DNA from: Candidatus Woesearchaeota archaeon
GTDB lineage: Archaea; Nanobdellota; Nanobdellia; Woesearchaeales; UBA12501
Direction: 5' to 3'
NCBI GenBank assembly: GCA_046484055.1
Contig: JAWOBY010000050.1
Coordinates: 1,232 to 65,231, forward strand
Length of the DNA stretch: 64,000 nt
Of the stretch, positions 4,201-44,154 are shown one piece after another. The translations under genes were made by a program, and so were the position numbers. The notes beneath the pieces were generated by a model. The model saw only the letters and a list, made by a program, of their open reading frames with translations. It ran no database searches and was not told where the DNA came from. Each line of letters begins with the position of its first letter. Positions within the stretch are counted from its first letter, which is position 1.

Positions 4201-4986
4201 AGGTTTGAGATAGACCCCAATCCCCTGCCGCCCCCTGAAGAGGAGCCGGACAAGCCCCCTGAGCTGATAAGGGTGGAGCCGCAGAACTGGACAGAACAGG
4301 GGCCCGATGAAGGGAGCGATGACGAGAAGACAGTCTATGTATTCACTGACCAGCTGGCTGAATGCGGTTACACCAAGGATGAATCAAAGACCTCGAGCGT
4401 GGTGTACATGGATGATTTTGACTGCCCCTCCTCGACTTACGAAGGAGGCCATATAGGAGGATATCTCTGCCAGAAGACATTCCAGCTGTCCGAGCTCACC
4501 ACAGAAGGGTCTCCTCTCTACATAAGATGCGCTGACCATCCTGAGCATTATGAGGCATATAACTTCCGCTTTGAGCAGGGCGAGAATTTCAACGCCCCCA
4601 GTGACATAAAGTGGATACCCCCTGACAGCAGCCAGCCGGGGACAGTGATCATAGATGATCCAAGGACCATAAACGAGAGCAAGCCTGTGATAAGTGTGCC
4701 CTCCACAAGCGTAAGGCTCTTCGTTCAGTTCAACACAAAGGACCATGATCATGAGAATGCTCTTGAATGCAGGTATGCCACCTCGCCTGATCAGACTTCA
4801 TCAGGCACAGCGCTTGTTGACCCCTCAAGCGGGGAGCCCGAATGCGACAACTGCACAGGGATGCTCACAGTGAGCTCAGGGACAGATTATTATATGTCAT
4901 GCCATTTCAAGCATCCTGAAAGGCTCAAGAGCGATATAAGCCAGTATGTCCTCAAAGTGCAGGAGGGCGGTTCAGGAGAATCCTGA
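1231..4986 (+). CDS. very large secreted or surface protein, Cys-rich, N-terminal signal-anchor (function unknown)
   Basis: 1251-aa uninterrupted ORF. N-terminal hydrophobic helix (VTAFILIGIILIVAASFFAYITYI). Dense Cys clusters (e.g. CCYNEDDGNCFENSDKTQCSDEGMEWRRGSCVQSGFQCE) and acidic DxD-rich segments. No catalytic motif recognised. Confidence 0.7.
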   Translation: MIGKKRCRKAQVTAFILIGIILIVAASFFAYITYIAKRAPSEDAVTENLPESLDKLSLDNLMRTCIKKAADPKLKSIAKYGGTLDPDPNQYRLYNHTRYRYLCRQAPGYSDCVNALLTRESMQKELEENVRGDAVSCVDKALNFYTERGYDIETGNARTNVIVGTDDVNVILIYPVTASKGDNKISVSEYSVRFDYPLGKLYDLAMKIINKEEDAGHFNQEGWMYNHSAEILVQKHRPYPDTVYRISKYDWAKREWYIFNFAIQGYDDLKELAGLAALGGPGSSASSPSSARSTAYDQDIGCCYNEDDGNCFENSDKTQCSDEGMEWRRGSCVQSGFQCESRSEKRYDNRTGLCNGRECRDCMGPTYSSGDDPEDPDTWTGPARMHGESWCEYEGPTGNGKDFVGSRHYKHVCIDGTVMVEECRDYRDQMCVEDEKEINGETLTRAVCRPNRWQDCHLYSDDEDSCLDTSKRDCYWSDMQDNFVVGKPSDQDPDPDTPYEDRYCVPKVAPGLKFWNTIEGMQVCGWANNYYECDMPGCFQEWVDFDAAFCAMQGDCGIHRNYLGNLPRLSLSGSMPGENLPGVPAELKGLGFTSSTSTPSDQLFETTLPGENQAFTQFYGNYMGDLPLSPEQWGQPEVTPDLFVHDSPNDYSMYGMTEFTQEFAQWGLDRIENIDADLYDYLLYGDSIEWTSLSTSTCNVWAPSTSAEDCEKCNGNPYRPCTEYKCRSLGQFCNYEEVDGVGRCTSYQASTIGKPVVRFDGAVTEGHDIDDAALPAGGEVYLGKEIKEPLQRDFTFRVETNREAQCKLAMAPNAGFAFNPPFPGTSQDYSFSRKHNLTIPYISTESLSIIRLPMQMASAAHFNPDDYWNMLKSMMDEMIDYVDDIADDCFDCNPDDGDYSDCDDGRLIFLSESDCDDMEDVEDKMKDMRSEMTNLWNNQLKDQIEQWMSFAEDNALDEVMSYAAMQNKHHAFIKCRDRGGNENKADLDFIRFEIDPNPLPPPEEEPDKPPELIRVEPQNWTEQGPDEGSDDEKTVYVFTDQLAECGYTKDESKTSSVVYMDDFDCPSSTYEGGHIGGYLCQKTFQLSELTTEGSPLYIRCADHPEHYEAYNFRFEQGENFNAPSDIKWIPPDSSQPGTVIIDDPRTINESKPVISVPSTSVRLFVQFNTKDHDHENALECRYATSPDQTSSGTALVDPSSGEPECDNCTGMLTVSSGTDYYMSCHFKHPERLKSDISQYVLKVQEGGSGES

Positions 4987-7882: not shown

Positions 7883-9607
7883 ATGGGAAAACTCAAGTCG
7901 GTAATAAAACATCCAAGGACGATCATACTGATCGCATTCCTCATTCTTGCAGTCGTAGCCATAAACCCCGCGCCTTGGAAGGAAGGGGTTGCCATACGGT
8001 CAGTCATGCAGAACAGCTCGGCATCAATGGCAGGGATTGAAAGCCCGAAACCTGCAGCCACACCCAGAAGCAGGGAGGTCATAATCTCCATGAACAACAG
8101 GCCCATAAGAAGCGTGAAGGATTATCATGAATTTGTTGACGGCCTTGACATAAACCGGACTGTGAAGATAACCACAGATAAAGATGTTTACAGGCTCAAA
8201 ACGCTCCCTGAATACAATGTCACAGAATTGAATGAGACAGAAACCAGATGGGTCGAGGAGACTGTGCAGGTGAATAAGACGGTGAATGGCACTGTCCAGC
8301 TCGTGAACGAGACTGTCAGGAAGCAGGTAGAGGTGCCGAAAACCGAGAAAGAGCTTGCAGGCATGGAGGATCCAGGCCTTAGGATCTACGAGGCCCCCAC
8401 AACAAACATAAGGAAAGGGCTTGACCTTCAGGGAGGCACAAGGGTTCTCCTTAAGCCCGAGAGAAAACTGGACAAAGATGAGATGGAGATGCTTCTCGCC
8501 AACATGAAAGAGAGGCTCAATATCTATGGCCTTACAGACATAACAGTGAGGGAGACCTCTGATCTGAGCGGCAACCAGTACATACTTGTTGAGATAGCAG
8601 GGGCGACAGAGGAGGATATACAGGAACTGCTGGCCAGACAGGGCAAGTTCGAGGCAAAGATAGGCAATAGTACAGTGTTCAGAGGAGGAGGGGACATAAC
8701 CTATGTGTGCAGGAGCGCTGAATGCTCGGGGCTGGACTCACAGAAGGGGTGCGGAAGGACTTCAGAAGGGAACTGGGTCTGCAGGTTCAGGTTCTCCATC
8801 TCACTGAGGCCTGAAGCTGCGGAAAGGCAGGCAGAAGCCACCAAGGATATGGAGGTGGTGACCGAGAACGGCGAGCAGTACCTCAGCAGAAAACTCAACC
8901 TTTATCTTGATGATTCCAAAGTGGACAGCCTTAACATAGGGGCGGATCTGAAGGGAAGGCCTGTGACTGAAATATCAATCTCAGGAGCAGGAGAGGGGAT
9001 AAGCAGGGAGGAGGCGACCTCCAACGCCCTGAAGAACATGAAAAGGCTGCAGACCGTACTCATAACAGGAAGCCTGCCTGTGAAGCTTGAAGTGGTGAAG
9101 ACCAACACGATCTCGCCCATGCTGGGGGAGGAATTCACAAAGAACGCCCTCTTGATAGGATTCCTTGCGATAATCGCTGTCGCTGTCGTCATACTCATAA
9201 GATTCAAAAGGATAGAGATAACTGTCCCTGTCATAATAACCATGTTCTCTGAAGTCCTTTTATTGCTCGGGCTTGCCTCACTCATAGGATGGAATCTTGA
9301 CCTTGCAGCGATAGCGGGAATAATAATAGCGGCAGGTACCGGAGTGGATGACCAGATAGTGATAATAGATGAAGTTATGCGGGGGAAGGGTGATATAACC
9401 TCCGGCTGGAAGCAGAAGATAAAGAAAGCGTTCTTCATCATAATGGCTGCTTACTTCACTACAGTCGTCGCTATGGTTCCCCTGCTCTTCGCAGGAGCCG
9501 GCCTTCTCAAGGGTTTCGCTTTCACGACCATAGCAGGAGTATCTTTCGGAGTTTTTGTAACAAGGCCAGCATTCGCCTCGACAGCAGAGATCCTGCTGAA
9601 GAAGTGA
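7883..9607 (+). CDS. secD: protein-export membrane protein SecD
   Basis: 574 aa. N-terminal TM helix, large extracytoplasmic domain (GLDLQGGTRVLLKPE motif), C-terminal six-TM bundle (AGIIIAAGTGVDDQIVIIDE). Confidence 0.85.
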   Translation: MGKLKSVIKHPRTIILIAFLILAVVAINPAPWKEGVAIRSVMQNSSASMAGIESPKPAATPRSREVIISMNNRPIRSVKDYHEFVDGLDINRTVKITTDKDVYRLKTLPEYNVTELNETETRWVEETVQVNKTVNGTVQLVNETVRKQVEVPKTEKELAGMEDPGLRIYEAPTTNIRKGLDLQGGTRVLLKPERKLDKDEMEMLLANMKERLNIYGLTDITVRETSDLSGNQYILVEIAGATEEDIQELLARQGKFEAKIGNSTVFRGGGDITYVCRSAECSGLDSQKGCGRTSEGNWVCRFRFSISLRPEAAERQAEATKDMEVVTENGEQYLSRKLNLYLDDSKVDSLNIGADLKGRPVTEISISGAGEGISREEATSNALKNMKRLQTVLITGSLPVKLEVVKTNTISPMLGEEFTKNALLIGFLAIIAVAVVILIRFKRIEITVPVIITMFSEVLLLLGLASLIGWNLDLAAIAGIIIAAGTGVDDQIVIIDEVMRGKGDITSGWKQKIKKAFFIIMAAYFTTVVAMVPLLFAGAGLLKGFAFTTIAGVSFGVFVTRPAFASTAEILLKK

Positions 9608-10463: not shown

Positions 10464-11363
10464 TCAGCTGATCCTTACCCTGCTCTCCTCGAGATCCACC
10501 AGTCTTTCCCACTGGGTGTCCACGTGCTTCTGCACTCCCTCAATCTCTGAAGGGGTCAGGTGCTTGAATCTCTTCTGGTTCTTGAGATATTCCTCCACGG
10601 GGATCTCCTTGCTCGGCCTGTTTGTTATGCTGACTATACCGTTCTCGACCTCAAAGAGAGGAGTGACTTTTGACTTGAAAGCGAGCTTTGCCACTTCAAT
10701 GCTCATGCTGCTTGATATGCCCCATCCGGGTATGCAGGGACAGAACACCTGGATGTATGAGACTCCCTTGTGCTCAAAGCTCTTCTTGACTTTCTTTATC
10801 AGATCGTGAGGATATGCCACAGATGTAGTCGCCACATATGCTCCATGCGAGGCCATGATAAGGGGCATGTTCTTCTTGAACTGGACCTTGCCATGGACTT
10901 TCTTGCCCGCCGGGCTTGTTGTGGTGGACGCGTACTTGGGCGTCGCGCCGCTGCGCTGTATCCCTGTATTCATATAAGCGCCGTTGTCAAAGCACACGTA
11001 TGTGAATTTATGGCCCCTCTCAGCCGCTCCGCTCAACGCCTGAAATCCTATGTCAAACGTTCCGCCGTCACCGGCCATGGCGAGAAGATTGATCTTCTTC
11101 CTTTTCTTGAGCTTTTCCAGTGCCTTGTCAATTCCTGAAGCGACGCTTGCCGCTGTCTCGAAAGCGCCATGCACCCACGGCACTTTCCATGATGTCTCAG
11201 GGTATGGTGTTGAGAATACCTCGAGGCATCCTGTCGCGTTCGCGACTATGGAGTTCTTTCCCGCGGCTTTCATCACGTACCTGACAGCGAGCGCCTGACC
11301 GCAGCCCGCGCATGCCCTGTGCCCCGGAGCGAGATACTCTTCTGTGGTTATGTTGTTTATCAT
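10464..11363 (-). CDS. porB: pyruvate:ferredoxin oxidoreductase beta subunit (TPP-binding)
   Basis: 299 aa. GHRACAGCG near the N-terminus and a GDGGTFDIG TPP/Mg motif. Directly downstream of porA. Confidence 0.9.
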   Translation of the reverse strand: MINNITTEEYLAPGHRACAGCGQALAVRYVMKAAGKNSIVANATGCLEVFSTPYPETSWKVPWVHGAFETAASVASGIDKALEKLKKRKKINLLAMAGDGGTFDIGFQALSGAAERGHKFTYVCFDNGAYMNTGIQRSGATPKYASTTTSPAGKKVHGKVQFKKNMPLIMASHGAYVATTSVAYPHDLIKKVKKSFEHKGVSYIQVFCPCIPGWGISSSMSIEVAKLAFKSKVTPLFEVENGIVSITNRPSKEIPVEEYLKNQKRFKHLTPSEIEGVQKHVDTQWERLVDLEESRVRIS

Positions 11364-11388: not shown

Positions 11389-12561
11389 TTAATTGTCCTG
11401 TTTGTTGTCCTCTATAAGCCATTCCTCTCTTGTTTCCTTCCCTTTCATTGCGTGTTTGAGAGTATATTCCAAATGTTCAGGGGTTATGTCTTTTCCGCCC
11501 AGCCCTGCTATGAATCCTGATATCTTAATTTTTATCCCCCATAATGCTGACTTGAGCTCTGAGAACAGTGCGCCCTCATGGCCGATTGATATGTTACGGT
11601 CGATGACCACCAGCCCTTTCAGGTTTTTGGAGGCTTTGATGATCTCTTCGACAGGGAAGGGCCTGAACGCCTTTATCTTTATCAGCCCCACTCTCTTGCC
11701 CTGTTTTCTCATGCTGTCCACCACATGCCTTGCTGTGCCGCATACAGTGCCCATTGCGACTATGGCATACTGCGCGCCCTGCATCTTGTATGTATCGATA
11801 AGGCCGTTGCCGTATTTTCTCCTGAATTTGGAGTTGAACTCAGAGTTGGTCTTTTGTATGACCTTGAGCGCGTTCTTTGCAGCTTCCTGCTGCATCTGCC
11901 TGAAATGCATGTATGAGTCAGGGAACCCCACAGGCCCCTGCGTTATGGGCTTTCTGGGGTCAAGGAATGCGTGATTAGGCTTGTATTTGGGGAGGAACTG
12001 GCCCACCTTCGCTTTTGTGGGTATCTCTACAGGCTCCCACACATGGCTCAGCGTGAATCCGTCCAGACATACCATGACAGGGAGGAGTACATTCTTGTTC
12101 TCGGCTATCTTGTACGCCTGTATGACTGTGTCCATCGCCTCCTGCGAGCTCTCTACATAAAGCTGTATCCAGCCTGAATCACGCGCTGCTATGCTGTCCT
12201 GATGGTCATTCCATATGTTTATGGGTGCTGAGAGTGCCCTGTTTGCCACTGCCATCACTATGGGGAGCCTCATTCCTGAAGCGACAAAGAGCATCTCGTG
12301 CATCAGCGCGAGCCCCTGTGATGCTGTCGCTGTGAATGATCTTACCCCTGTCGCCTGCGCGCCTATGCATGCTGACATCGCAGAGTGCTCTGATTCCACG
12401 TCTATAAGTTCAGCGTCCATGTTCCCGTCATTGACGAAATCCGCTATGCGCTCCACTATGTGGGTCTGAGGGGTTATGGGATACATGGCCACCACTGAGG
12501 GCTTGCAGAGCTTTACCGCTTCTGCTACTGCCTGGCTCGCTTCCATCACTTGTTTTGGCAT
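11389..12561 (-). CDS. porA: pyruvate:ferredoxin oxidoreductase alpha subunit
   Basis: 390 aa. The N-terminus (EASQAVAEAVKLCKPSVVAMYPITPQTHIVERIA) and overall length are typical of PorA. Confidence 0.9.
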   Translation of the reverse strand: MPKQVMEASQAVAEAVKLCKPSVVAMYPITPQTHIVERIADFVNDGNMDAELIDVESEHSAMSACIGAQATGVRSFTATASQGLALMHEMLFVASGMRLPIVMAVANRALSAPINIWNDHQDSIAARDSGWIQLYVESSQEAMDTVIQAYKIAENKNVLLPVMVCLDGFTLSHVWEPVEIPTKAKVGQFLPKYKPNHAFLDPRKPITQGPVGFPDSYMHFRQMQQEAAKNALKVIQKTNSEFNSKFRRKYGNGLIDTYKMQGAQYAIVAMGTVCGTARHVVDSMRKQGKRVGLIKIKAFRPFPVEEIIKASKNLKGLVVIDRNISIGHEGALFSELKSALWGIKIKISGFIAGLGGKDITPEHLEYTLKHAMKGKETREEWLIEDNKQDN

Positions 12562-12563
12562 AT

Positions 12564-12591
12564 TGTTCTCCTCTGTTTGTTCTCCTCTGTT
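12564..12591 (-). repeat. perfect tandem duplication of a 14-nt unit carrying the porA Shine-Dalgarno motif
   Basis: tgttctcctctgtt occurs twice head-to-tail at 12564-12577 and 12578-12591. On the mRNA strand this reads aacagaggagaaca x2, giving two GAGGAG motifs just 5' of the porA ATG at 12561. Confidence 0.8.
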
Positions 12592-12623
12592 GTTTTGATA
12601 TCGTTTGATATTATTTGATGTTA

Positions 12624-12678
12624 TTACAAATAGCGCAATACCTCTTCTTTCAATTTGGGGATGTAGCGCTATTTGTAA
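12624..12678. repeat. perfect 13-bp inverted repeat (hairpin with 29-nt loop)
   Basis: ttacaaatagcgc (12624-12636) is the exact reverse complement of gcgctatttgtaa (12666-12678). Confidence 0.8.
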
Positions 12679-12681
12679 GAC

Positions 12682-12818
12682 TTAAAATGTGACCATCTAT
12701 AATGCAAGCCCGTAATACTTTGAGCTTTGCTCAAAGGGGAAGAAATCCGAAGGATTTCAACACCCCTACCTTTAGGTAGGGGATAGGGCTTGCTTATCAA
12801 ATAATGGTCACATTTTAA
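12682..12818. other. 137-nt nested perfect inverted-repeat element (candidate structured ncRNA or MITE-like insert) in the cutA-porA spacer
   Basis: Outer 15-bp stem 12682-12696 / 12804-12818. Inner 8-bp stem 12704-12711 / 12786-12793. These enclose three hairpins: 12718-12736 (8 bp), 12742-12758 (7 bp) and 12763-12782 (9 bp). All 47 bp are Watson-Crick, with no G-U pair and no mismatch. Confidence 0.6.
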
Positions 12819-12904
12819 TTATTTTGGTGTTTTAATGTTTTACTTTGAAACTGTTATGCTGTATTTTCCCGTTCATTCCTGTTCATGATATGATTCATGA
12901 TGAT

Positions 12905-13207
12905 TTATGATGTTTCCTTATCAACCCATTCGCTGTACTGCTTGTTGGCCTCTGCATTTATCCTTATTATGGCCGGCACATCATAGCTGTGCAGTTCCCT
13001 GACCGCTTCCGCTACTTTTTCATGATTGGCTTCGCTTGTCTTGCATAAGAGCGCGACTTCGCCTTCATCGACAGCTTTGCCTTCCCACATGTATATGCTC
13101 TCGATGGGGAACACATTGGCGCAGGCTATGAGCTTCCTGCTGACAAGCTCCTTGCCTATGTGTTTCGCCTCTTTGCCGTCCCCGCAGGGTATGTATATGA
13201 GTATCAT
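12905..13207 (-). CDS. cutA: divalent-cation tolerance protein CutA
   Basis: 100 aa. GKELVSRKLIACANVFPIESIYMWEGK, EVALLCKT and HSYDVPAI are characteristic of CutA1. Confidence 0.85.
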   Translation of the reverse strand: MILIYIPCGDGKEAKHIGKELVSRKLIACANVFPIESIYMWEGKAVDEGEVALLCKTSEANHEKVAEAVRELHSYDVPAIIRINAEANKQYSEWVDKETS

Positions 13208-13225: not shown

Positions 13226-13507
13226 TCATTTCTCCTCCTTCACCATCTCTATGCATTTGACAGGGCATTCCTGCGCGCATATCCCGCAGCCCTTGCAGTA
13301 GTCAAGGTTCGCATCGAATTTCTCGTTTATGGCATTGTCAGGGCAGAACATCCAGCAGAAGCCGCAGTGGATGCATTTCTTCGGGTCCCTCACAGGCTTG
13401 TACTCCCTCCAGCTTCCTGTCTTGTTCTTAACTGTCGAGCCCGGCTTTGTGATCACAGCACCTGTGGTGAACTGCGTATCTTTTTTTGCTTTCTTTTTCT
13501 TTGTCAT
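13226..13507 (-). CDS. porD: pyruvate:ferredoxin oxidoreductase delta subunit (2x[4Fe-4S] ferredoxin)
   Basis: 93 aa. Two Cys clusters, CIHCGFCWMFCP and CKGCGICAQECP. Confidence 0.9.
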   Translation of the reverse strand: MTKKKKAKKDTQFTTGAVITKPGSTVKNKTGSWREYKPVRDPKKCIHCGFCWMFCPDNAINEKFDANLDYCKGCGICAQECPVKCIEMVKEEK

Positions 13508-13574: not shown

Positions 13575-14174
13575 TCAGTCCTTGACTGTGTCATAAACCT
13601 CTTTCACTGCCTTCTTGTTGAGGTCAGCTGTCTGTTTCCCTTTGGTATGGACGAATTTCTCGTCTATTGCTTTCTGCAGGGACTTTATGCTGACTACGCC
13701 TGTTATCGCGGAAAACCCCCCTAAGATGGGTGTGTTGACTATTGGCCTGTTGAATATTTTCATGGCTGTTGAACTGGCATCTATCGTATGGATTCCATAA
13801 CCTTCCTTCTTCCCGCCTTTACCGCCTGATTTGATCCCGCTTGATTTGCTGGGTTTAAGATTCAGGTCTCCGGCCTCTGAAGATGTGTTTATGACAAAAG
13901 TACCTTTGTCCTTCACTCCTTTTGTGATGTCCTCAGTCTGTATGAGTGTTGAATCAAGCACAAGAACAATGTCAGGATTATAGACCTGCGATCTTATGTT
14001 TATGGGCTTATTGTCTATGCGCACGTATGTCTCCACAGGCGCCCCGCGCCTCTCAACCCCGAATTTGGGGAATGTCTGGGAGTGTTTGCCGTCATAGAGG
14101 GCGGCTATCGCGATTATCTGGCCTGTGCTTACCGCACCCTGGCCGCCCCTGCCGTGGACTCTTATTTCTATCAT
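13575..14174 (-). CDS. porG: pyruvate:ferredoxin oxidoreductase gamma subunit
   Basis: 199 aa. N-terminus IEIRVHGRGGQGAVSTGQIIA is typical of PorG. First gene of the por cluster. Confidence 0.9.
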   Translation of the reverse strand: MIEIRVHGRGGQGAVSTGQIIAIAALYDGKHSQTFPKFGVERRGAPVETYVRIDNKPINIRSQVYNPDIVLVLDSTLIQTEDITKGVKDKGTFVINTSSEAGDLNLKPSKSSGIKSGGKGGKKEGYGIHTIDASSTAMKIFNRPIVNTPILGGFSAITGVVSIKSLQKAIDEKFVHTKGKQTADLNKKAVKEVYDTVKD

Positions 14175-25522: not shown

Positions 25523-26956
25523 ATGGCAAAGAAGATGGCACAGAATAAGAACGAAAAAGCAGAGGATTCTGAAAAGGACGGGCTGATAAAGAAAGTCCGC
25601 GTCACTGATGGACAGAGGTCTTCCCTCTCAAATGTAATCGTGTCCATGGCAGATGATGTTTACGGATTGGAGCTGAACGGCAGGGTGAAAAAGAGCCTCC
25701 ATGATATAGGAATGGTCATGATAGACGGAACGCTCTATTTCAGCGGATACCGCGGCCATGAAGACCCGGACGCACAGGAAGAGCTGCTTGAGGTGGAAAG
25801 CTTCAACGGTTCCTTGTTCGATGGCAAAGCCCCTGAGAGGATAAAGGTGGGGGATATGATACTGTACAGCGATAAGGAAGCAGCCATTCAAGAGGCCGCT
25901 AAAATAACAGAAGGGCCAGCTGAAGAATCGAATCTGGAAAGCATGGCAGGAACTGATGAAGGAATATATGACACCAACACCCCTGATAAGGATTTCCTGA
26001 TTGCCGCATTATACGCGCGAGCGCTCCAGACAGCGGAGGAGAAAGAAGAGCTGTCAGGCAGGCTTGAGGAAAAAGCCAAAGAGTACGAAAGAGAGATGGA
26101 GAGCAAGGAAGATGAGCACCAGAAAGAACTGGCAGCGCAGAAGGATATCCTGGAAGGAAAACATGGAAAAAAGGAGCGCGAACTTAAAAGACAGGTCCAG
26201 GATTACGAGAAGAAGCTCGCGGAATATGAAGGCAGAGAGAATGGTTATGAAGAAAAGCTTGAGGAACAGAGAAAATACACGCAGTATCTTGACGAAGAGC
26301 TCAACAAGGCCAGGAAGCTTATCGAGAATTATGATGCGCTGGTGTCAGAGATCGCGGAGATGAGCCGGGAAAAGCCGCTGAGGGAGAGGGTGGCGGCCGC
26401 CAGGAACAAGCTCGTGGAACTCAGGGGCCTGAGAGAAAGAGTGAAGGAGCTTGAAGAGGAGATGAGCAGTGTTGAGGAACTGTACATAAGCCCTGATGCT
26501 GAAGTGCCTGCAGAAGATGGGGCGACACCCTTACAGAAGCCTTTACAGAAGAATACTGAAAGCACTAAAGAGAATGATGCTAGCTACAATACAGCAGGAA
26601 GCCCGAGAGACCTCGATGCAGCAGCGAATTATGTTGTGCTCAAGATATACAACAGATACAGAGGCGACGAGGATGCCGTAATGAAGGAGCTGAATGAGGT
26701 GCTTGACGGCTTTGAGAGGCTGGAGCCTGAAGATAAGGGCCTTACGCGCAAAGACTTCGCAATACTCAGGGAATTCTACAATCACAAATGCCAGGAGATG
26801 TCCCAGTACACCCTGATGGATCATTCAATAATAACACCTCTCATAGTGGACAATGAGATCAAGCCCATGTTCAGGAGCATGGAAACCCCAAGCGAGAGGG
26901 TCAGCCTGGAACACAAGCTGAGAGGATCATATGAAAATTATGAGACAGAACAATAA
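25523..26956 (+). CDS. coiled-coil protein, unknown function
   Basis: 477 aa. The central ~180 aa are heptad-like and E/K/R-rich (EEKAKEYEREMESKEDEHQKELAAQKD...), flanked by globular N- and C-terminal domains. Confidence 0.6.
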   Translation: MAKKMAQNKNEKAEDSEKDGLIKKVRVTDGQRSSLSNVIVSMADDVYGLELNGRVKKSLHDIGMVMIDGTLYFSGYRGHEDPDAQEELLEVESFNGSLFDGKAPERIKVGDMILYSDKEAAIQEAAKITEGPAEESNLESMAGTDEGIYDTNTPDKDFLIAALYARALQTAEEKEELSGRLEEKAKEYEREMESKEDEHQKELAAQKDILEGKHGKKERELKRQVQDYEKKLAEYEGRENGYEEKLEEQRKYTQYLDEELNKARKLIENYDALVSEIAEMSREKPLRERVAAARNKLVELRGLRERVKELEEEMSSVEELYISPDAEVPAEDGATPLQKPLQKNTESTKENDASYNTAGSPRDLDAAANYVVLKIYNRYRGDEDAVMKELNEVLDGFERLEPEDKGLTRKDFAILREFYNHKCQEMSQYTLMDHSIITPLIVDNEIKPMFRSMETPSERVSLEHKLRGSYENYETEQ

Positions 26957-29026: not shown

Positions 29027-29423
29027 GTAGGGTCAGAAGGTGGCTGACGGTGGTTTTGCTCTTGAAGCATAAACCGCTGAGGAAAGTCCGCCCACAGCAA
29101 TATCGGCTGCTTTTGGCTCCATGCACCGCGCATGGGGGCACAAGTTCCGGAAACGGAAGGCAACCGCTCAGAAACGATACCGCCTGCCAGGCGCTATGAG
29201 GCTTGCGAAGGCCGTGGTGACACGGCTGAGACATACCAAAAACCAGCTGAGTCTGCTGGCAGGAGAGGATGAAACGGCGAGTCCCGGCCTGTGCAACCCG
29301 GAAAGGGGCTTAGTAGAATGCCATCACAGGCCATCGCAATCGTCATGAAATGCTTTGCGTAACGCAATGCAACAGATGACGATTGTTCGGGTCTGACAGG
29401 AGGCGGCTTACTCTGGCCCTACA
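29027..29423 (+). ncRNA. rnpB: RNase P RNA (archaeal)
   Basis: CR-I motif GAGGAAAGUCCGCCCAC and CR-V motif ACAGGAGGCGGCUUAC. P1 helix GUAGGGUCAGA (29027-29037) pairs with UCUGGCCCUAC (29412-29422). Ends are accurate to a few nt. Confidence 0.9.
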
Positions 29424-30145: not shown

Positions 30146-30619
30146 ATGGACAGGGCCAGGGATGCTGCTGAGAAGGCCGTACGAAACTTGAAGATAGCTG
30201 ATCACATGCTGACGCAGACATATCCCTCAGTCAGGGATTCCAGACTGCTGCTCAGTGTCATGGAGAACGTGTTCCTCTCTATGACCAATTCCATGGCGGC
30301 GATACTCCATCACGAGCGGGCCCATAAGAGGATCCCCCCTTTCCAGAACAATTTTGAATCAAAATTCAACATGTTCAAGCTCAAGGTGGCCCACAGGCAT
30401 AACATAGACAAGGAATACATGAGCCTGATAAGCGCTTTGAAGAACACTCTCGTGGCGCACAAGAAAAGCCCTGTGGAGTTCAGCAGGAAGGATGTCTTTG
30501 TGATATGCTCTGACAGCTATGACATGAAAACAGTCTCAGTTGAGAATGTGAGGGACTATGTAAACAAAGCCAAGGGATTCGTCCGGACAATGCAGGGCAT
30601 TGTGGGGGTTGAGACATGA
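30146..30619 (+). CDS. hypothetical helical protein, paralog A
   Basis: 157 aa. Shares N-terminal (AxxxLKxxDHxL...SxxE) and C-terminal (F(S/T)R...V..Y...A..F...MQ) patterns with the ORF at 30744. Confidence 0.6.
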   Translation: MDRARDAAEKAVRNLKIADHMLTQTYPSVRDSRLLLSVMENVFLSMTNSMAAILHHERAHKRIPPFQNNFESKFNMFKLKVAHRHNIDKEYMSLISALKNTLVAHKKSPVEFSRKDVFVICSDSYDMKTVSVENVRDYVNKAKGFVRTMQGIVGVET

Positions 30620-30743
30620 GACACTGCCTGATGCGCTGGACCGGGAGGCACTTAATCATAAGAGACCGCACAGAAGCTGTCAGTAAAGACAAGCTCCACA
30701 CGAGACACATCCAGATGATTAAAGACAATCTTAAGAGGGGAAT

Positions 30744-31199
30744 ATGAAAGAATCGCTGGAAAAAGCAAGGGAAGAGCTGAAAAGATCGGATCATCTTATC
30801 TATGTCAGCCTCAAATACACCAGGACATGCGATGTCTTCAAGAGCATAATTGAAAGGCTGATAAATGCCATGGATTTCATGATAGAGGCTCTGCTGAAGA
30901 AGGAAGCTGAAGACAACAATATAGAGGAGATACCGCCTCAGCCGATCGCGAAGTGCAAACTCTGCGCTGATACTACAGGTAATGACGAGATAAAGGAGAT
31001 GTGTGATTTCTTCCTCACCCTCAAAAAGATCAGCAGGGCAGGATTCACGAGAGAAAGGGAATACAGGAGGCATGTGACCATGAGGATGGATATCGAGGGC
31101 ACAGAGTGCAGCGTGGACATAGACACCATCACAGAATATTACAAGAGGACCCAGCATTATTATGATATGATCCAGGCCCTGCTGACAGGAGATGAATAG
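30744..31199 (+). CDS. hypothetical helical protein, paralog B
   Basis: 151 aa. Alignable by eye with the 30146 ORF (EKAREELKRSDHLIYVSL vs EKAVRNLKIADHMLTQTY). Confidence 0.6.
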   Translation: MKESLEKAREELKRSDHLIYVSLKYTRTCDVFKSIIERLINAMDFMIEALLKKEAEDNNIEEIPPQPIAKCKLCADTTGNDEIKEMCDFFLTLKKISRAGFTREREYRRHVTMRMDIEGTECSVDIDTITEYYKRTQHYYDMIQALLTGDE

Positions 31200-31337
31200 C
31201 AAGGAAATGCAAGCCACAGGAGGGGGACACAGGAAGATATAAATTGAGGGCAGGAACCCTGGCAGTAAAACATGACAAGTTAAGATGATAAGAGAGACGG
31301 CAGATGAAGAGCAGTCCCGAGAACAAGAGGTGGATAA

Positions 31338-32060
31338 ATGACTAAATTTCTGGCTGTTGCATCCGCAAAAGGAGGGGTCGGCAAGACCACCACCGCCCTG
31401 AACCTGGGCACTGCGCTCACTAACTTCGGCAAGGATGTGGTCATAGTCGACACGAACATGGGAACACCCCACATATCGCTCCATCTGGGATCGCCTAAAA
31501 TGAATGCCACCCTGAATGATTCCCTCTCAGGCAGGATCAACATAAGGGATGCCGCTTACCTGCATCCCTCAGGGATAAGGATAATCCCCTCAAGCATATC
31601 AAGCGACCACACGCGCGCTGCAGGGTATGGCCTGCTGCAGGAGACCCTGATGGATCTGGTGGGCACAACAGACCTTGTGCTGATGGACTCACCCGCGGGG
31701 AATGAAGGCGAGCAGGTCCTGAAAGCTTGTGATGAAGTGATAGTTGTACTGACCCCTGACACCCCTTCGCTCGCTGAGGCAATGAAGACCATAAGGACAG
31801 CTGAAGAATACGGAAAGAAGGTCATAGGGGCCATAATCAACAGGTCAAGAGGGGACAAGTTTGAGATGTCCGCAAACAACATAGAAAGCCTTCTGGAGAA
31901 GCCTGTCCTGGGTGTGATCCCTGAAGACGGTTCAGTGCTGAGGTCGCTGGCCCTTAACCACCCGGTGGTGTACACCCATCCTGAATCAGAAGCATCCCTG
32001 GGTTTCAAGGAGGTTGCTGCTGTACTGCTCGGCCAGGAATACAAGAGCGGAATAAACTGA
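31338..32060 (+). CDS. MinD/ParA-family P-loop ATPase
   Basis: 240 aa. Deviant Walker A VASAKGGVGKTTTALNLG, and Walker B VLMDSPAG. Confidence 0.85.
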   Translation: MTKFLAVASAKGGVGKTTTALNLGTALTNFGKDVVIVDTNMGTPHISLHLGSPKMNATLNDSLSGRINIRDAAYLHPSGIRIIPSSISSDHTRAAGYGLLQETLMDLVGTTDLVLMDSPAGNEGEQVLKACDEVIVVLTPDTPSLAEAMKTIRTAEEYGKKVIGAIINRSRGDKFEMSANNIESLLEKPVLGVIPEDGSVLRSLALNHPVVYTHPESEASLGFKEVAAVLLGQEYKSGIN

Positions 32061-32807: not shown

Positions 32808-32880
32808 GGCGGCAATAGTATAGTGGTCAGTACGCGGGACTGTGGATCCCGAGACCTGGGTTCGATTCCCAGTTGCCGCC
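32808..32880 (+). tRNA. tRNA-His (anticodon GUG) with genome-encoded G-1
   Basis: Manual cloverleaf. Acceptor GCGGCAA/TTGCCGC plus G-1:C73. D arm GTAT-AGTGGTCA-GTAC. Anticodon arm CGGGA-CTGTGGA-TCCCG. T arm CTGGG-TTCGATT-CCCAG. No encoded CCA. Confidence 0.9.
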
Positions 32881-33140
32881 TTGATAATTCATGCCTTTAC
32901 ATCATGGGCGGGAGCATGACATGGGAAGTGCCACAGCCCAAAAGCTTTATAAATAAGCTCTTGTACAGCAATAATATACCTTTATAAGCCTTAAAAAGCT
33001 TGATAAAGCCCGAGTTCAAAGCATTTGAGCGATTAAAAGGGCCAAAACCTTTTAATTCTGTCTCTTTATGCTTTACGGCTGTGAGGGCGCACATGGGTGA
33101 TCACAGGCCGGAATGACAAGGGCTCGAAGGGAATTCAAAA

Positions 33141-35650: not shown

Positions 35651-35776
35651 GCGGGAGTGCCGGAGGGGTCAAATGGGGCTGCTTTAAGTCTCAGACCAGA
35701 CGGGCTAGGTTGAGGAAAACAATTTCAGAAGCCTAGTGGCTTAGTGCCTGCGCGGGTTCGAAACCCGTCTCCCGCA
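35651..35776 (+). tRNA. tRNA-Leu (anticodon GAG) precursor with two predicted BHB introns
   Basis: Acceptor GCGGGAG/CTCCCGC with discriminator A. T arm GCGGG-TTCGAAA-CCCGT. Anticodon stem CTAGG (35705-09) / CCTAG (35732-36). Anticodon loop TT-GAG-G, interrupted after position 37 by a 15-nt intron (35716-35730). A second, 27-nt intron (35673-35699) sits in the D-loop. Splicing restores a GAGGGGTCAAA D-loop and gives an 84-nt class II tRNA with a 15-nt variable arm. Confidence 0.75.
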
Positions 35777-42472: not shown

Positions 42473-42744
42473 AAAGGACAGGCACCCCTCACTGGACACA
42501 AGCCATAGGAAGAGGCTGCCCCGGCTTTTCCTCAATCCCGCTACCCTGCAAGCATCAATGCCAAAGGTTAGTGCTGCTTCATTCCTGACCTGACACGATT
42601 CCCTAAGGCACCAATCCTGCAGGACAGAATATCATCGTCCAAGCCAAGACCTCAACCCATGGCCTGCGCCTCATAAGGGGCATCACCCAGCCGTAAAGCC
42701 CGTTTGCTGTATAGGAGAGGGCTGACCTCCCGGCTAGCCTGCCC
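42473..42744 (-). ncRNA. ffs: signal recognition particle RNA (7S/SRP RNA)
   Basis: Minus-strand read. 5' GGGCAGGCUAGCCGGGAGGUCAGCCC (archaeal Alu-domain-like start). Helix-8 core CAGGUCAGGAAUGAAGCAGC has a GGAA tetraloop and AGCA loop, matching the universal CAGGxCxGGAAGxAGCAxC pattern. 5' GGGCAGGC pairs with 3' GCCUGUCC, followed by UUUAUUU. Ends accurate to a few nt. Confidence 0.85.
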
Positions 42745-43044: not shown

Positions 43045-44154
43045 TCATATCTTCTTTAGCGACATGTTCTTGAATTCGTTTTCAAGCAGTTTCTCTGCTT
43101 TTTTTGTCAGCTCTCCGGTCGTTATGAAGAATACCGGAAGCTTCTTTGACTGCGCGCTTATGTATACGGAGCTGAGATCGCCGTCATTCACTTTCTTCTT
43201 GTTCTTTGCCTTGCAGAAGTAGGTGAGGGTGCCGACAGGGCTGGGTATCTTTACTGTGAATTCGATGTCTGATTCCTTCCTGATTATGTTAAAGTCCAGC
43301 ATCTCTATACTGTTATCATCAAAGTATTTCTTTATCCTCCTGAAGAAACTGTCATCCGGCTCTCCAGCATCTTCACATTCTTTTCCCTCCTTTGGTTTGG
43401 CCTCTTTCTTGGCATTGTCATTCTCATCGCCGCTATAAGCTTTTTGGCCGAGGGAGCTCTGCACATCTTTCTTTTTCTCCTCGATATTTTTTGCCTCTGT
43501 CTTTTTCGCCGGCTCCTGATTATTAGTTTCATTGTCCTTTGATGGCTGGGGCGATTCCCTCTTATTATCCATCATGCTTTTCCTGTCATCGTTTTCCTCA
43601 TCCTTCACTGCGGGTCCGCCCTGGCTGTCAGTCTGCCTGTTCTTGAGATTCTCATCAGTGTTCCGGGAGTGATTTCCCTCATTGCTGGGCCTTTCCCTGT
43701 CAGTGATGCCCATCATGTCCCTTATTGTCTTTTCCGCCTCTTCATTGGGCACAGCATACCATTTCCAGAATATATGATTTGTATTGTTTATGGTCACCTG
43801 CAATGGCTTCGCGAAATCCTTTAACTGCCTCAGGGCCGCCCTCACAGCAGGCGCCTGCTTCTCATCCCTGAGTATCCTCTTCTCCTTGAGAAGATCGAAC
43901 GCCTCTTTCTCCTTGGGGTGGAGATTCTCTGCGTACTGTTCCAGCTTGTTTTCCTGGCCGGGATAATAATAAAGAGGGGATCCTCCTGATTTTATTGAGG
44001 AAATCTTCAGCATGTTCTTGCTCACCAGCTCCCCCAGGATTGCAGAAGTGAACATTATGTTCGTGTCAAGCTCCTTGTTTATCTGGGAAGGCACGACTGG
44101 ACCTTTCATGCGCACTATCTGTAATGCCTTATCATGGGCGTTGGAGACTGTCAT
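43045..44154 (-). CDS. putative DNA-binding protein: tandem winged-helix-like N-terminus, charged linker, C-terminal restriction-endonuclease-like (Mrr-cat-like) domain
   Basis: 369 aa. N-terminus ALQIVRMKGPVVPSQINKELDTNIMFTSAILGELVSKNMLK...SPLYYYP looks winged-helix-like. C-terminus ESDIEFTVKI...LTYFCKAKNKKKV...VFFITTGELTKKAEKLL fits a D...(E/Q)xK nuclease-fold pattern. Assigned by motif resemblance only. Confidence 0.5.
   Translation of the reverse strand: MTVSNAHDKALQIVRMKGPVVPSQINKELDTNIMFTSAILGELVSKNMLKISSIKSGGSPLYYYPGQENKLEQYAENLHPKEKEAFDLLKEKRILRDEKQAPAVRAALRQLKDFAKPLQVTINNTNHIFWKWYAVPNEEAEKTIRDMMGITDRERPSNEGNHSRNTDENLKNRQTDSQGGPAVKDEENDDRKSMMDNKRESPQPSKDNETNNQEPAKKTEAKNIEEKKKDVQSSLGQKAYSGDENDNAKKEAKPKEGKECEDAGEPDDSFFRRIKKYFDDNSIEMLDFNIIRKESDIEFTVKIPSPVGTLTYFCKAKNKKKVNDGDLSSVYISAQSKKLPVFFITTGELTKKAEKLLENEFKNMSLKKI

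Follow-up and report, generated by a model that had tools for sequence, protein, structure and literature searches.

Palindrome-associated transposable elements (PATEs) are gene-less derivatives of IS200/IS605 insertion sequences (IS605/IS1341-type) in haloarchaea; they possess palindromes near their termini but no inverted termini, they carry a conserved targeting oligonucleotide, and 20-50 bp separate palindrome and terminus (Dyall-Smith et al. 2011, PMC3119063). Their insertions are strain-specific, and core deletions mediated by repeats occur (PMC3119063). Geobacillus, too, has minimal elements of a PATE-like kind, with target motifs of the TTTAT type (PMC10055086). In IS608 of Helicobacter pylori, the prototype of the IS200/IS605 family, the Y1 transposase TnpA binds subterminal hairpins of one DNA strand, with guides located directly 5′ of the hairpin feet (left guide GL AAAG for cleavage site CL TTAC, right guide GR GAAT for cleavage site CR TCAA); the pairs A+16:T-3 and A+17:T-4 are documented, and an AT located 3′ of the left hairpin (IP_L) makes base triplets with the guide (PMC3201880, PMC5934647). 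Here, we describe a 198-nt unit in a 64,000-nt stretch of a Candidatus Woesearchaeota archaeon contig (JAWOBY010000050.1), referred to as the window. The unit (12625-12822, plus strand) lies between cutA and porA of the pyruvate:ferredoxin oxidoreductase (por) operon, and we consider it, with a probability of roughly 0.85, to be a non-autonomous mobile element.

The unit consists of a left-end domain, D1 (12624-12678), and a right-end domain, D2 (12682-12818), which are separated by three bases; these and all features below are given on the plus strand unless stated otherwise. D1 is a perfect inverted repeat whose 13-bp outer stem (12624-12636/12666-12678) closes a 29-nt loop. This loop holds AATA (12637-12640, the proposed left guide, G_L), directly followed by the foot of an apical hairpin, IP_L (CCTC, a 12-nt loop and GGGG; 12641-12660), which forms the core of a nearly invariant block of ∼45 nt. 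On the 3′ side of the IP_L foot stands ATGTA (12661-12665), the AT of which is the counterpart of A+42/T+43 in IS608. D2 is a block of 137 nt in which a 15-bp outer stem (12682-12696/12804-12818) is followed by CTATAAT and an 8-bp inner stem (12704-12711/12786-12793) that closes a four-way junction. The junction carries two passenger hairpins, regarded as variable cargo (12718-12736, 8 bp; 12742-12758, 7 bp), and a third hairpin, IP_R, of 9 bp (CCCCTACCT/AGGTAGGGG; 12763-12782), which with the ATA that follows it extends to 12785; the proposed right guide G_R, AACA (12759-12762), lies 5′ of the IP_R foot. TTAT bounds the unit on both sides, at 12621-12624 immediately 5′ of D1 (proposed target or left cleavage site, C_L or target-adjacent motif, TAM) and at 12819-12822 after the D2 outer stem (proposed cleavage site C_R or transposon-encoded motif, TEM). 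The unit has no transposase coding capacity and contains only spurious overlapping open reading frames (ORFs); its known copies range from 111 to 240 nt.

All 47 bp of the D2 block are Watson–Crick pairs, with neither a G-U pair nor a mismatch. RNAfold recovers the four-way junction and the 5′ hairpin on both strands (plus strand, −91.4 kcal/mol, z = −12.1; minus strand, −85.4 kcal/mol, z = −11.1), and 0 of 200 shuffles were as stable as the native fold. Every stem listed in the original prediction was thus confirmed, as was its statement that the fold is possible on either strand. That prediction counted two structured elements, a hairpin and a cloverleaf, which we now recognize as the left and right ends of one unit. 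Such perfect pairing could also suggest a recent local duplication–inversion, i.e. a fortuitous palindrome belonging to no family. With z-scores of about −11 to −12, and with four homologues elsewhere whose stems are compensated, we give this explanation practically no credence.

These four relatives reside in other Woesearchaeota/Nanoarchaeota contigs, at loci that we call L049, L127, L130 and L132. The last three are the true homologues among 23 matches obtained when metagenomes were scanned for the conserved loop pattern. L049 belongs to the Woesearchaeota metagenome-assembled genome (MAG) GCA_016929255.1, where the copy sits at the very end of a contig, upstream of porG and in reversed orientation relative to por. 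The L127 copy is found between dnaG and a convergent AAA_18 kinase gene, the L130 copy between two genes of unknown kind, and the L132 copy next to a PHP phosphatase gene and a LAGLIDADG ORF. The neighbourhoods of the four homologues are unrelated, and the orientation of the element to its neighbours is inconsistent, both arrangements being seen; in the window, it is antisense to the por genes. The similarity between the copies begins and ends at TTAT. Every copy whose left flank is intact has the left TTAT (window, L127, L130 and L132); in L049, the contig ends within this motif, at TAT. The right TTAT follows the D2 outer stem, at a distance of 0-1 nt, in all five copies. The flanking TTAA that had previously been considered as a boundary belongs to the outer stem. 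When the two termini of every copy were compared by eye, no terminal inverted repeats were seen. Within the 64-kb window itself, BLAST, pattern and nhmmer searches found no second copy.

The two-domain architecture, D1 followed by D2, is common to the homologues. In all five copies, D1 comprises a 13-bp stem around the nearly invariant GCAAKACCTCTTCTTTCAA(N3)GRGGATGTAGC. The outer stem of D2 varies from 10 to 15 bp, and its sequence is completely different between lineages while being always perfectly paired. Inside it, the junction reads CTAWAAT in the window and L130 copies, GTAATA is conserved, and a conserved hairpin, CCNNNNCCTTTAGGNNNNGG, is followed by ATAGGG. Homologues of IP_R were identified in L130, L132 and L049; four of its nine pairs covary around an invariant apex, CCTTTAGG, again with ATA. 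Additional D2 hairpins number from zero to two per copy and vary in position; these passengers are missing from L132 and L049. They also appear shuffled, as the window copy has two before the conserved right-end hairpin and L130 two after it (about 8085-8140, minus strand), and one pair looks homologous between these copies (GAAATCC/GGATTTC in the window, AGAAATC/GATTTCT in L130). The extra 55-nt segment of L130 is flanked by GATA repeats, which hints at a nested insertion or duplication. The L127 copy departs from this plan (L127 11767-11881 compared with L132 8538-8704): its D2 is a simple 10-bp outer hairpin with a T-run, exactly what would remain if the L132/L049 form had lost the sequence between its two GCGAGTC direct repeats. 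It has neither the inner right-end hairpin nor the proposed guide, and is probably immobile.

Comparison of L127 with the loci of a graded series of DnaG relatives revealed both states of one insertion site. The filled site in L127 reads ...ggagaatTGA|TTAT[TGCAG ... TCTGCGTTAT]CTTTTTG. At the orthologous position of L148, where dnaG and the kinase gene abut, the empty site reads ...ggagaagTGA|TCATCTCTTT. The DnaG proteins of L148 and L127 are 96% identical, and the DNA to the left and right of the site is collinear, with 92% identity. Five further loci, L149-L153 (81-88% identity), are likewise empty. L148 and L049 derive from the same MAG, so that a single genome has an empty dnaG site and a copy next to por. 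The TTAT-to-TTAT unit, occupied in L127 and missing from L148-L153, is therefore an insertion/deletion polymorphism between very close relatives. The element is a discrete, TTAT-bounded, dispersed and insertion-polymorphic unit with covarying hairpins.

To place the window copy in its operon, we compared 80 related por loci. Not one of the 80 has the element at the cutA-porA junction. The two closest loci, L001 (77% PorA identity) and L045 (76%), share the porG-porD-cutA-porA gene order, and their cutA and porA genes are 1 nt and 49 nt apart, respectively, with no element. In the window, the cutA-porA spacer measures 343 nt (12562-12904), as had been reported together with the gene context. 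Since the closest relatives have spacers of 1-49 nt and the element is absent from all 80 loci, the sequence comparison indicates that the long spacer is a lineage-specific insertion in an otherwise compact operon. L049 is the single locus among the 80 with a related copy, which is at an unrelated position upstream of porG. The PorA of the window is 100% identical to a protein of a Candidatus Woesearchaeota MAG in NCBI; the next-best match is 79% identical, so no exact empty site exists for the window copy.

These data bear on the possibility that the structure is a cis-acting RNA of the por operon, i.e. a processing site, a stabilizer or a translational regulator of porA. Its location between cutA and porA would suit such a role, the minus-strand mRNA folds as well as the plus strand, and the porA Shine–Dalgarno sequence is duplicated beside the element. 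However, the position is conserved in none of the related loci, cutA abuts porA in the closest of them, and the homologues adjoin unrelated genes in either orientation. We therefore regard this explanation as very improbable. On the same grounds, the proposals of an operon-internal processing or stability element and of a locus-specific protein-binding RNA find no support. Both ORFs that flank the element are intact and porA retains a strong, duplicated Shine–Dalgarno sequence; if the hairpins influence the por mRNA at all, this would be a secondary effect.

We then asked at which level the stems are maintained. Of the 206 stem pairs present in the five copies, 196 are Watson–Crick; the remainder comprise four G·T pairs on the plus strand, one that would be G·T on the opposite strand, and five mismatches. 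Compensatory double changes occur in 6 of the 13 pairs of the D1 outer stem, a level reached by 0 of 500 column shuffles, and slid registers give at most one. The covariation anticipated for a genuine structure is thus present, and stems that have diverged and been compensated between lineages are at odds with the young palindrome that the absence of wobble had been taken to favour. Compensation is abundant and wobble amounts to only ∼2% of pairs, which is atypical for RNA; hence, the sequences argue that the structure is selected, probably at the DNA level, as would be expected of hairpins in single-stranded DNA. The almost wobble-free pairing despite heavy covariation, together with the filled and empty orthologous sites, bears out the one earlier suggestion that survives, that of a small non-autonomous mobile element operating at the DNA level.

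The same observations can be turned towards a free-standing structured small RNA gene, trans-acting or protein-binding, that has itself been moved or horizontally transferred and whose stems are kept at the RNA level. Its functional part would be the nearly invariant apical loop, ACCUCUUCUUUCAA, which is anti-Shine–Dalgarno-like and extremely conserved, in contrast to the covarying stems. Wobble pairs, few as they are, favour the plus strand by 4:1, T-rich tracts stand 3′ of D2 in the plus orientation (with a clear hairpin and T-run in L127), and the orientation is independent of the neighbours, all of which speaks for such a gene. Yet no conserved promoter-like sequence is seen upstream, the L127 unit starting directly after the dnaG stop codon; a scan of the window found no terminator-like site, and no copy matches an Rfam family. 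Wobble at ∼2% of pairs is unusually low for an RNA, the conserved unit stops precisely where a tetranucleotide recurs, and it is missing from a relative with a 96% identical DnaG. Of the alternatives that we have weighed, this one retains the most plausibility, but we consider it unlikely. A related thought is that the element is mobile but constitutes a distinct, DPANN-specific, hairpin-bounded module rather than a decayed IS200/IS605 remnant, its ∼45-nt block acting as RNA, for example by guiding or scaffolding a nuclease or recombinase encoded elsewhere, or as an anti-Shine–Dalgarno-like regulator; the module would then be a mobile gene for a structured RNA. We hold this to be doubtful, and rank it just behind the RNA gene.

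What, then, could move the element? By analogy with IS608, we favour, with moderate confidence, an IS200/IS605-type mechanism acting on single-stranded DNA, which would make the element a PATE-like miniature. A Y1/HUH TnpA encoded elsewhere would bind IP_L (12641-12660) and IP_R (12763-12782) on the top (plus) strand, and the AANA guides 5′ of each hairpin foot would pair with the TTAT cleavage sites. The strand would be cut after each TTAT, the element excised as a circle, and the circle re-inserted 3′ of another TTAT. The additional perfect stems and passenger hairpins would be structural baggage whose pairing is kept by selection on the single strand; speculatively, these structures might juxtapose the ends or help cruciform extrusion.

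From both ends of IS608, we derived a positional rule in which guide positions 1, 2 and 4 would pair with site positions −3, −4 and −1. Position 4 and the right end are our extension of the documented pairs, and the rule fits both published IS608 guide/site pairs. For a TTAT site, the rule therefore predicts the guide AANA. In all five copies, AANA is found 5′ of the D1 apical hairpin, either as AATA (window and L049) or as AAGA (L127, L130 and L132). Likewise, the four copies that possess IP_R have AANA on its 5′ side (AACA in the window, AATA in L130, L132 and L049). Wherever these subterminal hairpins are present, AT directly follows them, within ATGTA on the left (5/5) and ATA on the right (4/4). 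The left TTAT is 16 nt from the IP_L foot, compared with 19 nt in IS608.

Several observations weigh against this mechanism. The hairpin feet were defined after inspection of the sequences, and the resemblance between IP_L and IP_R is weak (70% over 27 nt), whereas the ends of IS608 are near-identical. IP_R stands 24-95 nt from the right TTAT as opposed to 10 nt in IS608, although archaeal PATEs show 20-50 bp (PMC3119063). With the outer stems formed, TTAT would be 13-23 bp away from the guides, and these stems must melt for the pairing to take place. The empty site in L148 reads a single TCAT followed by CTCTT rather than TTAT, and identical TTAT on both sides is equally expected from a 4-bp target duplication. 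Five copies are known, four of which form one fairly close group, and a single copy is seen per contig, the 64-kb window included. Neither TnpA nor TnpB is encoded among the 27 window ORFs scanned, the Pfam lists of ∼100 kb of homologous contigs include no Y1 transposase or TnpB, and no autonomous insertion sequence sharing the ends of the element was found in the window or in the homologous contigs.

Some of these points would fit a miniature inverted-repeat transposable element (MITE) of the DDE cut-and-paste type, with TTAT as a strictly preferred 4-bp target that is duplicated on insertion. TTAT does occur on both sides of every copy with intact flanks, one related tetranucleotide is present in the empty site, and the element is small and has no ORF. 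Against this, comparison of the 5′ end, TGCAAATGG, with the reverse-complemented 3′ end gives scattered A/T matches only, an invariant 4-bp duplication would need an unusually strict target, and the AANA and AT motifs beside both inner hairpins would be left unexplained. A DDE-type mover is accordingly, in our estimation, also unlikely, a touch more so than the DPANN-specific module.

Set beside the known systems, the element most resembles PATEs. It shares with them the lack of terminal inverted repeats, the palindromes near both ends, a conserved targeting or terminal oligonucleotide of 4-5 nt and presence or absence at orthologous sites, and the L127 core deletion between direct repeats has its parallel there. 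It differs in its host, a DPANN lineage (Woesearchaeota/Nanoarchaeota) instead of haloarchaea or bacteria, and in its ends, as an additional perfect stem of 10-15 bp encloses the hairpin at either end, and a four-way junction with passengers may make up the right end. Furthermore, the left hairpin loop is almost invariant while the right hairpin covaries, and TTAT is the tetranucleotide on the left as well as on the right. No similarity of the element to known insertion sequence ends was found, and no partner transposon is known.

As in IS608, the single-strand order is cleavage site, 12-15-nt linker, 4-nt guide, hairpin and AT, and guide and site are complementary by position (AAAG/TTAC and GAAT/TCAA in IS608; AANA/TTAT here). 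By the same analogy, insertion would occur 3′ of the tetranucleotide without true duplication. Unlike the element, IS608 carries tnpA and tnpB, its hairpins are near-identical, its left and right tetranucleotides differ, and its right site is 10 nt from the hairpin. The element also recalls the bacterial REP/BIME sequences that are associated with RAYT (TnpA_REP) transposases, which are likewise short palindromes outside genes whose hairpin foot bears a conserved tetranucleotide. REPs are thought to be handled as single-stranded DNA by a Y1 HUH enzyme. However, REPs are 20-40 nt long, bacterial, present in hundreds of copies and often arranged in alternating pairs, whereas the element is 110-240 nt long, archaeal and, as far as seen, low-copy.

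Searches for known families and for further copies were otherwise blank. At its gathering thresholds, Rfam reported nothing at the locus in a scan of the whole window. An E-value-based scan of 12500-12950 on both strands returned noise, led by snR86 (E = 0.22; 13.5 bits against a gathering score of 120 bits), with the other matches (rli38, CRISPR-DR60 and mir-944) at E ≥ 1.8 and scores at most half of gathering; the four homologous loci likewise gave no family match. The view that the locus holds no Rfam-like motif and no tRNA was therefore upheld. A tRNA or tRNA-like structure was rejected since ARAGORN was blank at the locus and arm and loop sizes are wrong. We also dismissed Box C/D, K-turn and H/ACA readings of D1, whose motifs are not conserved; a hammerhead or other ribozyme, for which the cores are absent; an integron attC site, as there are no R′/R″ cores and no array; a replication origin, since covarying stems misfit protein-bound duplex sites; and a small ORF in the conserved loop, which would leave the compensated palindromes unexplained. 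An exact D2 28-mer had no match in genome contigs, and the full D1 hairpin pattern none in metagenome contigs. Three scans of viral contigs yielded only unrelated coding sequence or chance matches, and BLAST of the element against plasmids and phages gave no match. One further nhmmer hit to D1 (L129, E = 6e-5) has no stems and no TTAT, and was set aside as coding sequence.

Two independent assemblies end inside D1, namely the NCBI MAG contig of L049 and, for the L132 locus, the Logan contig L156, both at position 1. Such breaks are consistent with the presence of the same ∼45-nt block at several loci or in several genomes per sample. For the L132 locus, the next PHP homologue is 79% identical and is on a contig of 986 nt. 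The genome carrying L132 has two free-standing ORFs that resemble LAGLIDADG homing endonucleases (L132 8662-9222, minus strand, corresponding to L154 9038-9598; and L154 13501-14586; L154 is from MAG GCA_018830225.1). The stop codon of one of them falls inside the right end of the element; the other copies have no such neighbour, and this overlap is probably coincidental. In L130, a hairpin directly after a gene (4678-4701, minus strand; CTCCGCCCTTTAGGGCGGAG plus a T-run) closely resembles IP_R (nhmmer E = 0.006). It is probably an ordinary terminator-like hairpin rather than a second copy, but may hint that the element hairpin derives from terminator-like structures.

The por genes of the window are all on the minus strand, in the order porG (13575-14174), porD (13226-13507), cutA (12905-13207; Pfam CutA1, 5.5e-31), porA (11389-12561; Pfam POR_N and PFOR_II) and porB (10464-11363), such that cutA is the upstream and porA the downstream operon neighbour of the element. 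The parts of the cutA-porA spacer beyond the element (12563-12623 and 12866-12909) are largely made up of short tandem duplications. A 14-nt repeat occurs twice at 12563-12590 and duplicates the porA Shine–Dalgarno sequence (GAGGAGAA), and a 10-nt repeat, TTTGATNNNN, occurs three times at 12594-12623, its final unit ending in the TTAT target. On the other side, one 10-nt repeat is present twice at 12866-12885 and another twice at 12890-12909, overlapping the cutA stop codon. These duplications have no counterpart in relatives and may stem from slippage or be footprints of earlier insertions.

Elsewhere, the window encodes an archaeal RNase P RNA (29028-29421, plus strand), which at 394 nt against a 288-position model carries insertions, an archaeal signal recognition particle (SRP) RNA (42476-42744, minus strand) and tRNA-His (32808-32881, plus strand); the archaeal RNase P and SRP RNAs identify the window as archaeal. 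A weak Rfam tRNA match of 126 nt (35651-35776, plus strand; 32.8 bits), for which ARAGORN made no call, is probably a tRNA gene containing an intron. The region is otherwise of housekeeping character, with ribosomal proteins, SecY, SecD/F and GDH, and four long ORFs of 334-477 aa (54-1103, 25523-26956, 30480-31484 and 43045-44154) have no Pfam match at E ≤ 1e-5.

Collectively, these results remove a tempting false lead, since the ornate 'cloverleaf', for all its perfect pairing, is no novel riboregulator of pyruvate:ferredoxin oxidoreductase. Woesearchaeota and Nanoarchaeota are DPANN archaea with small genomes, in which few mobile elements have been characterized. Going by a limited literature search, we believe that this is the first PATE-type, IS200/IS605-like miniature family to be described in these lineages. 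Its TTAT boundaries, guide motifs and D1 block provide a handle for the annotation of such insertions in DPANN MAGs, and the element helps to explain contig breaks in assemblies. The same features offer a route to the partner TnpA and to any TnpB/omega-RNA system with a TTAT-type TAM. Lastly, the nested perfect stems round both ends are an unusual variation, which could inform how single-strand transposon ends are presented.

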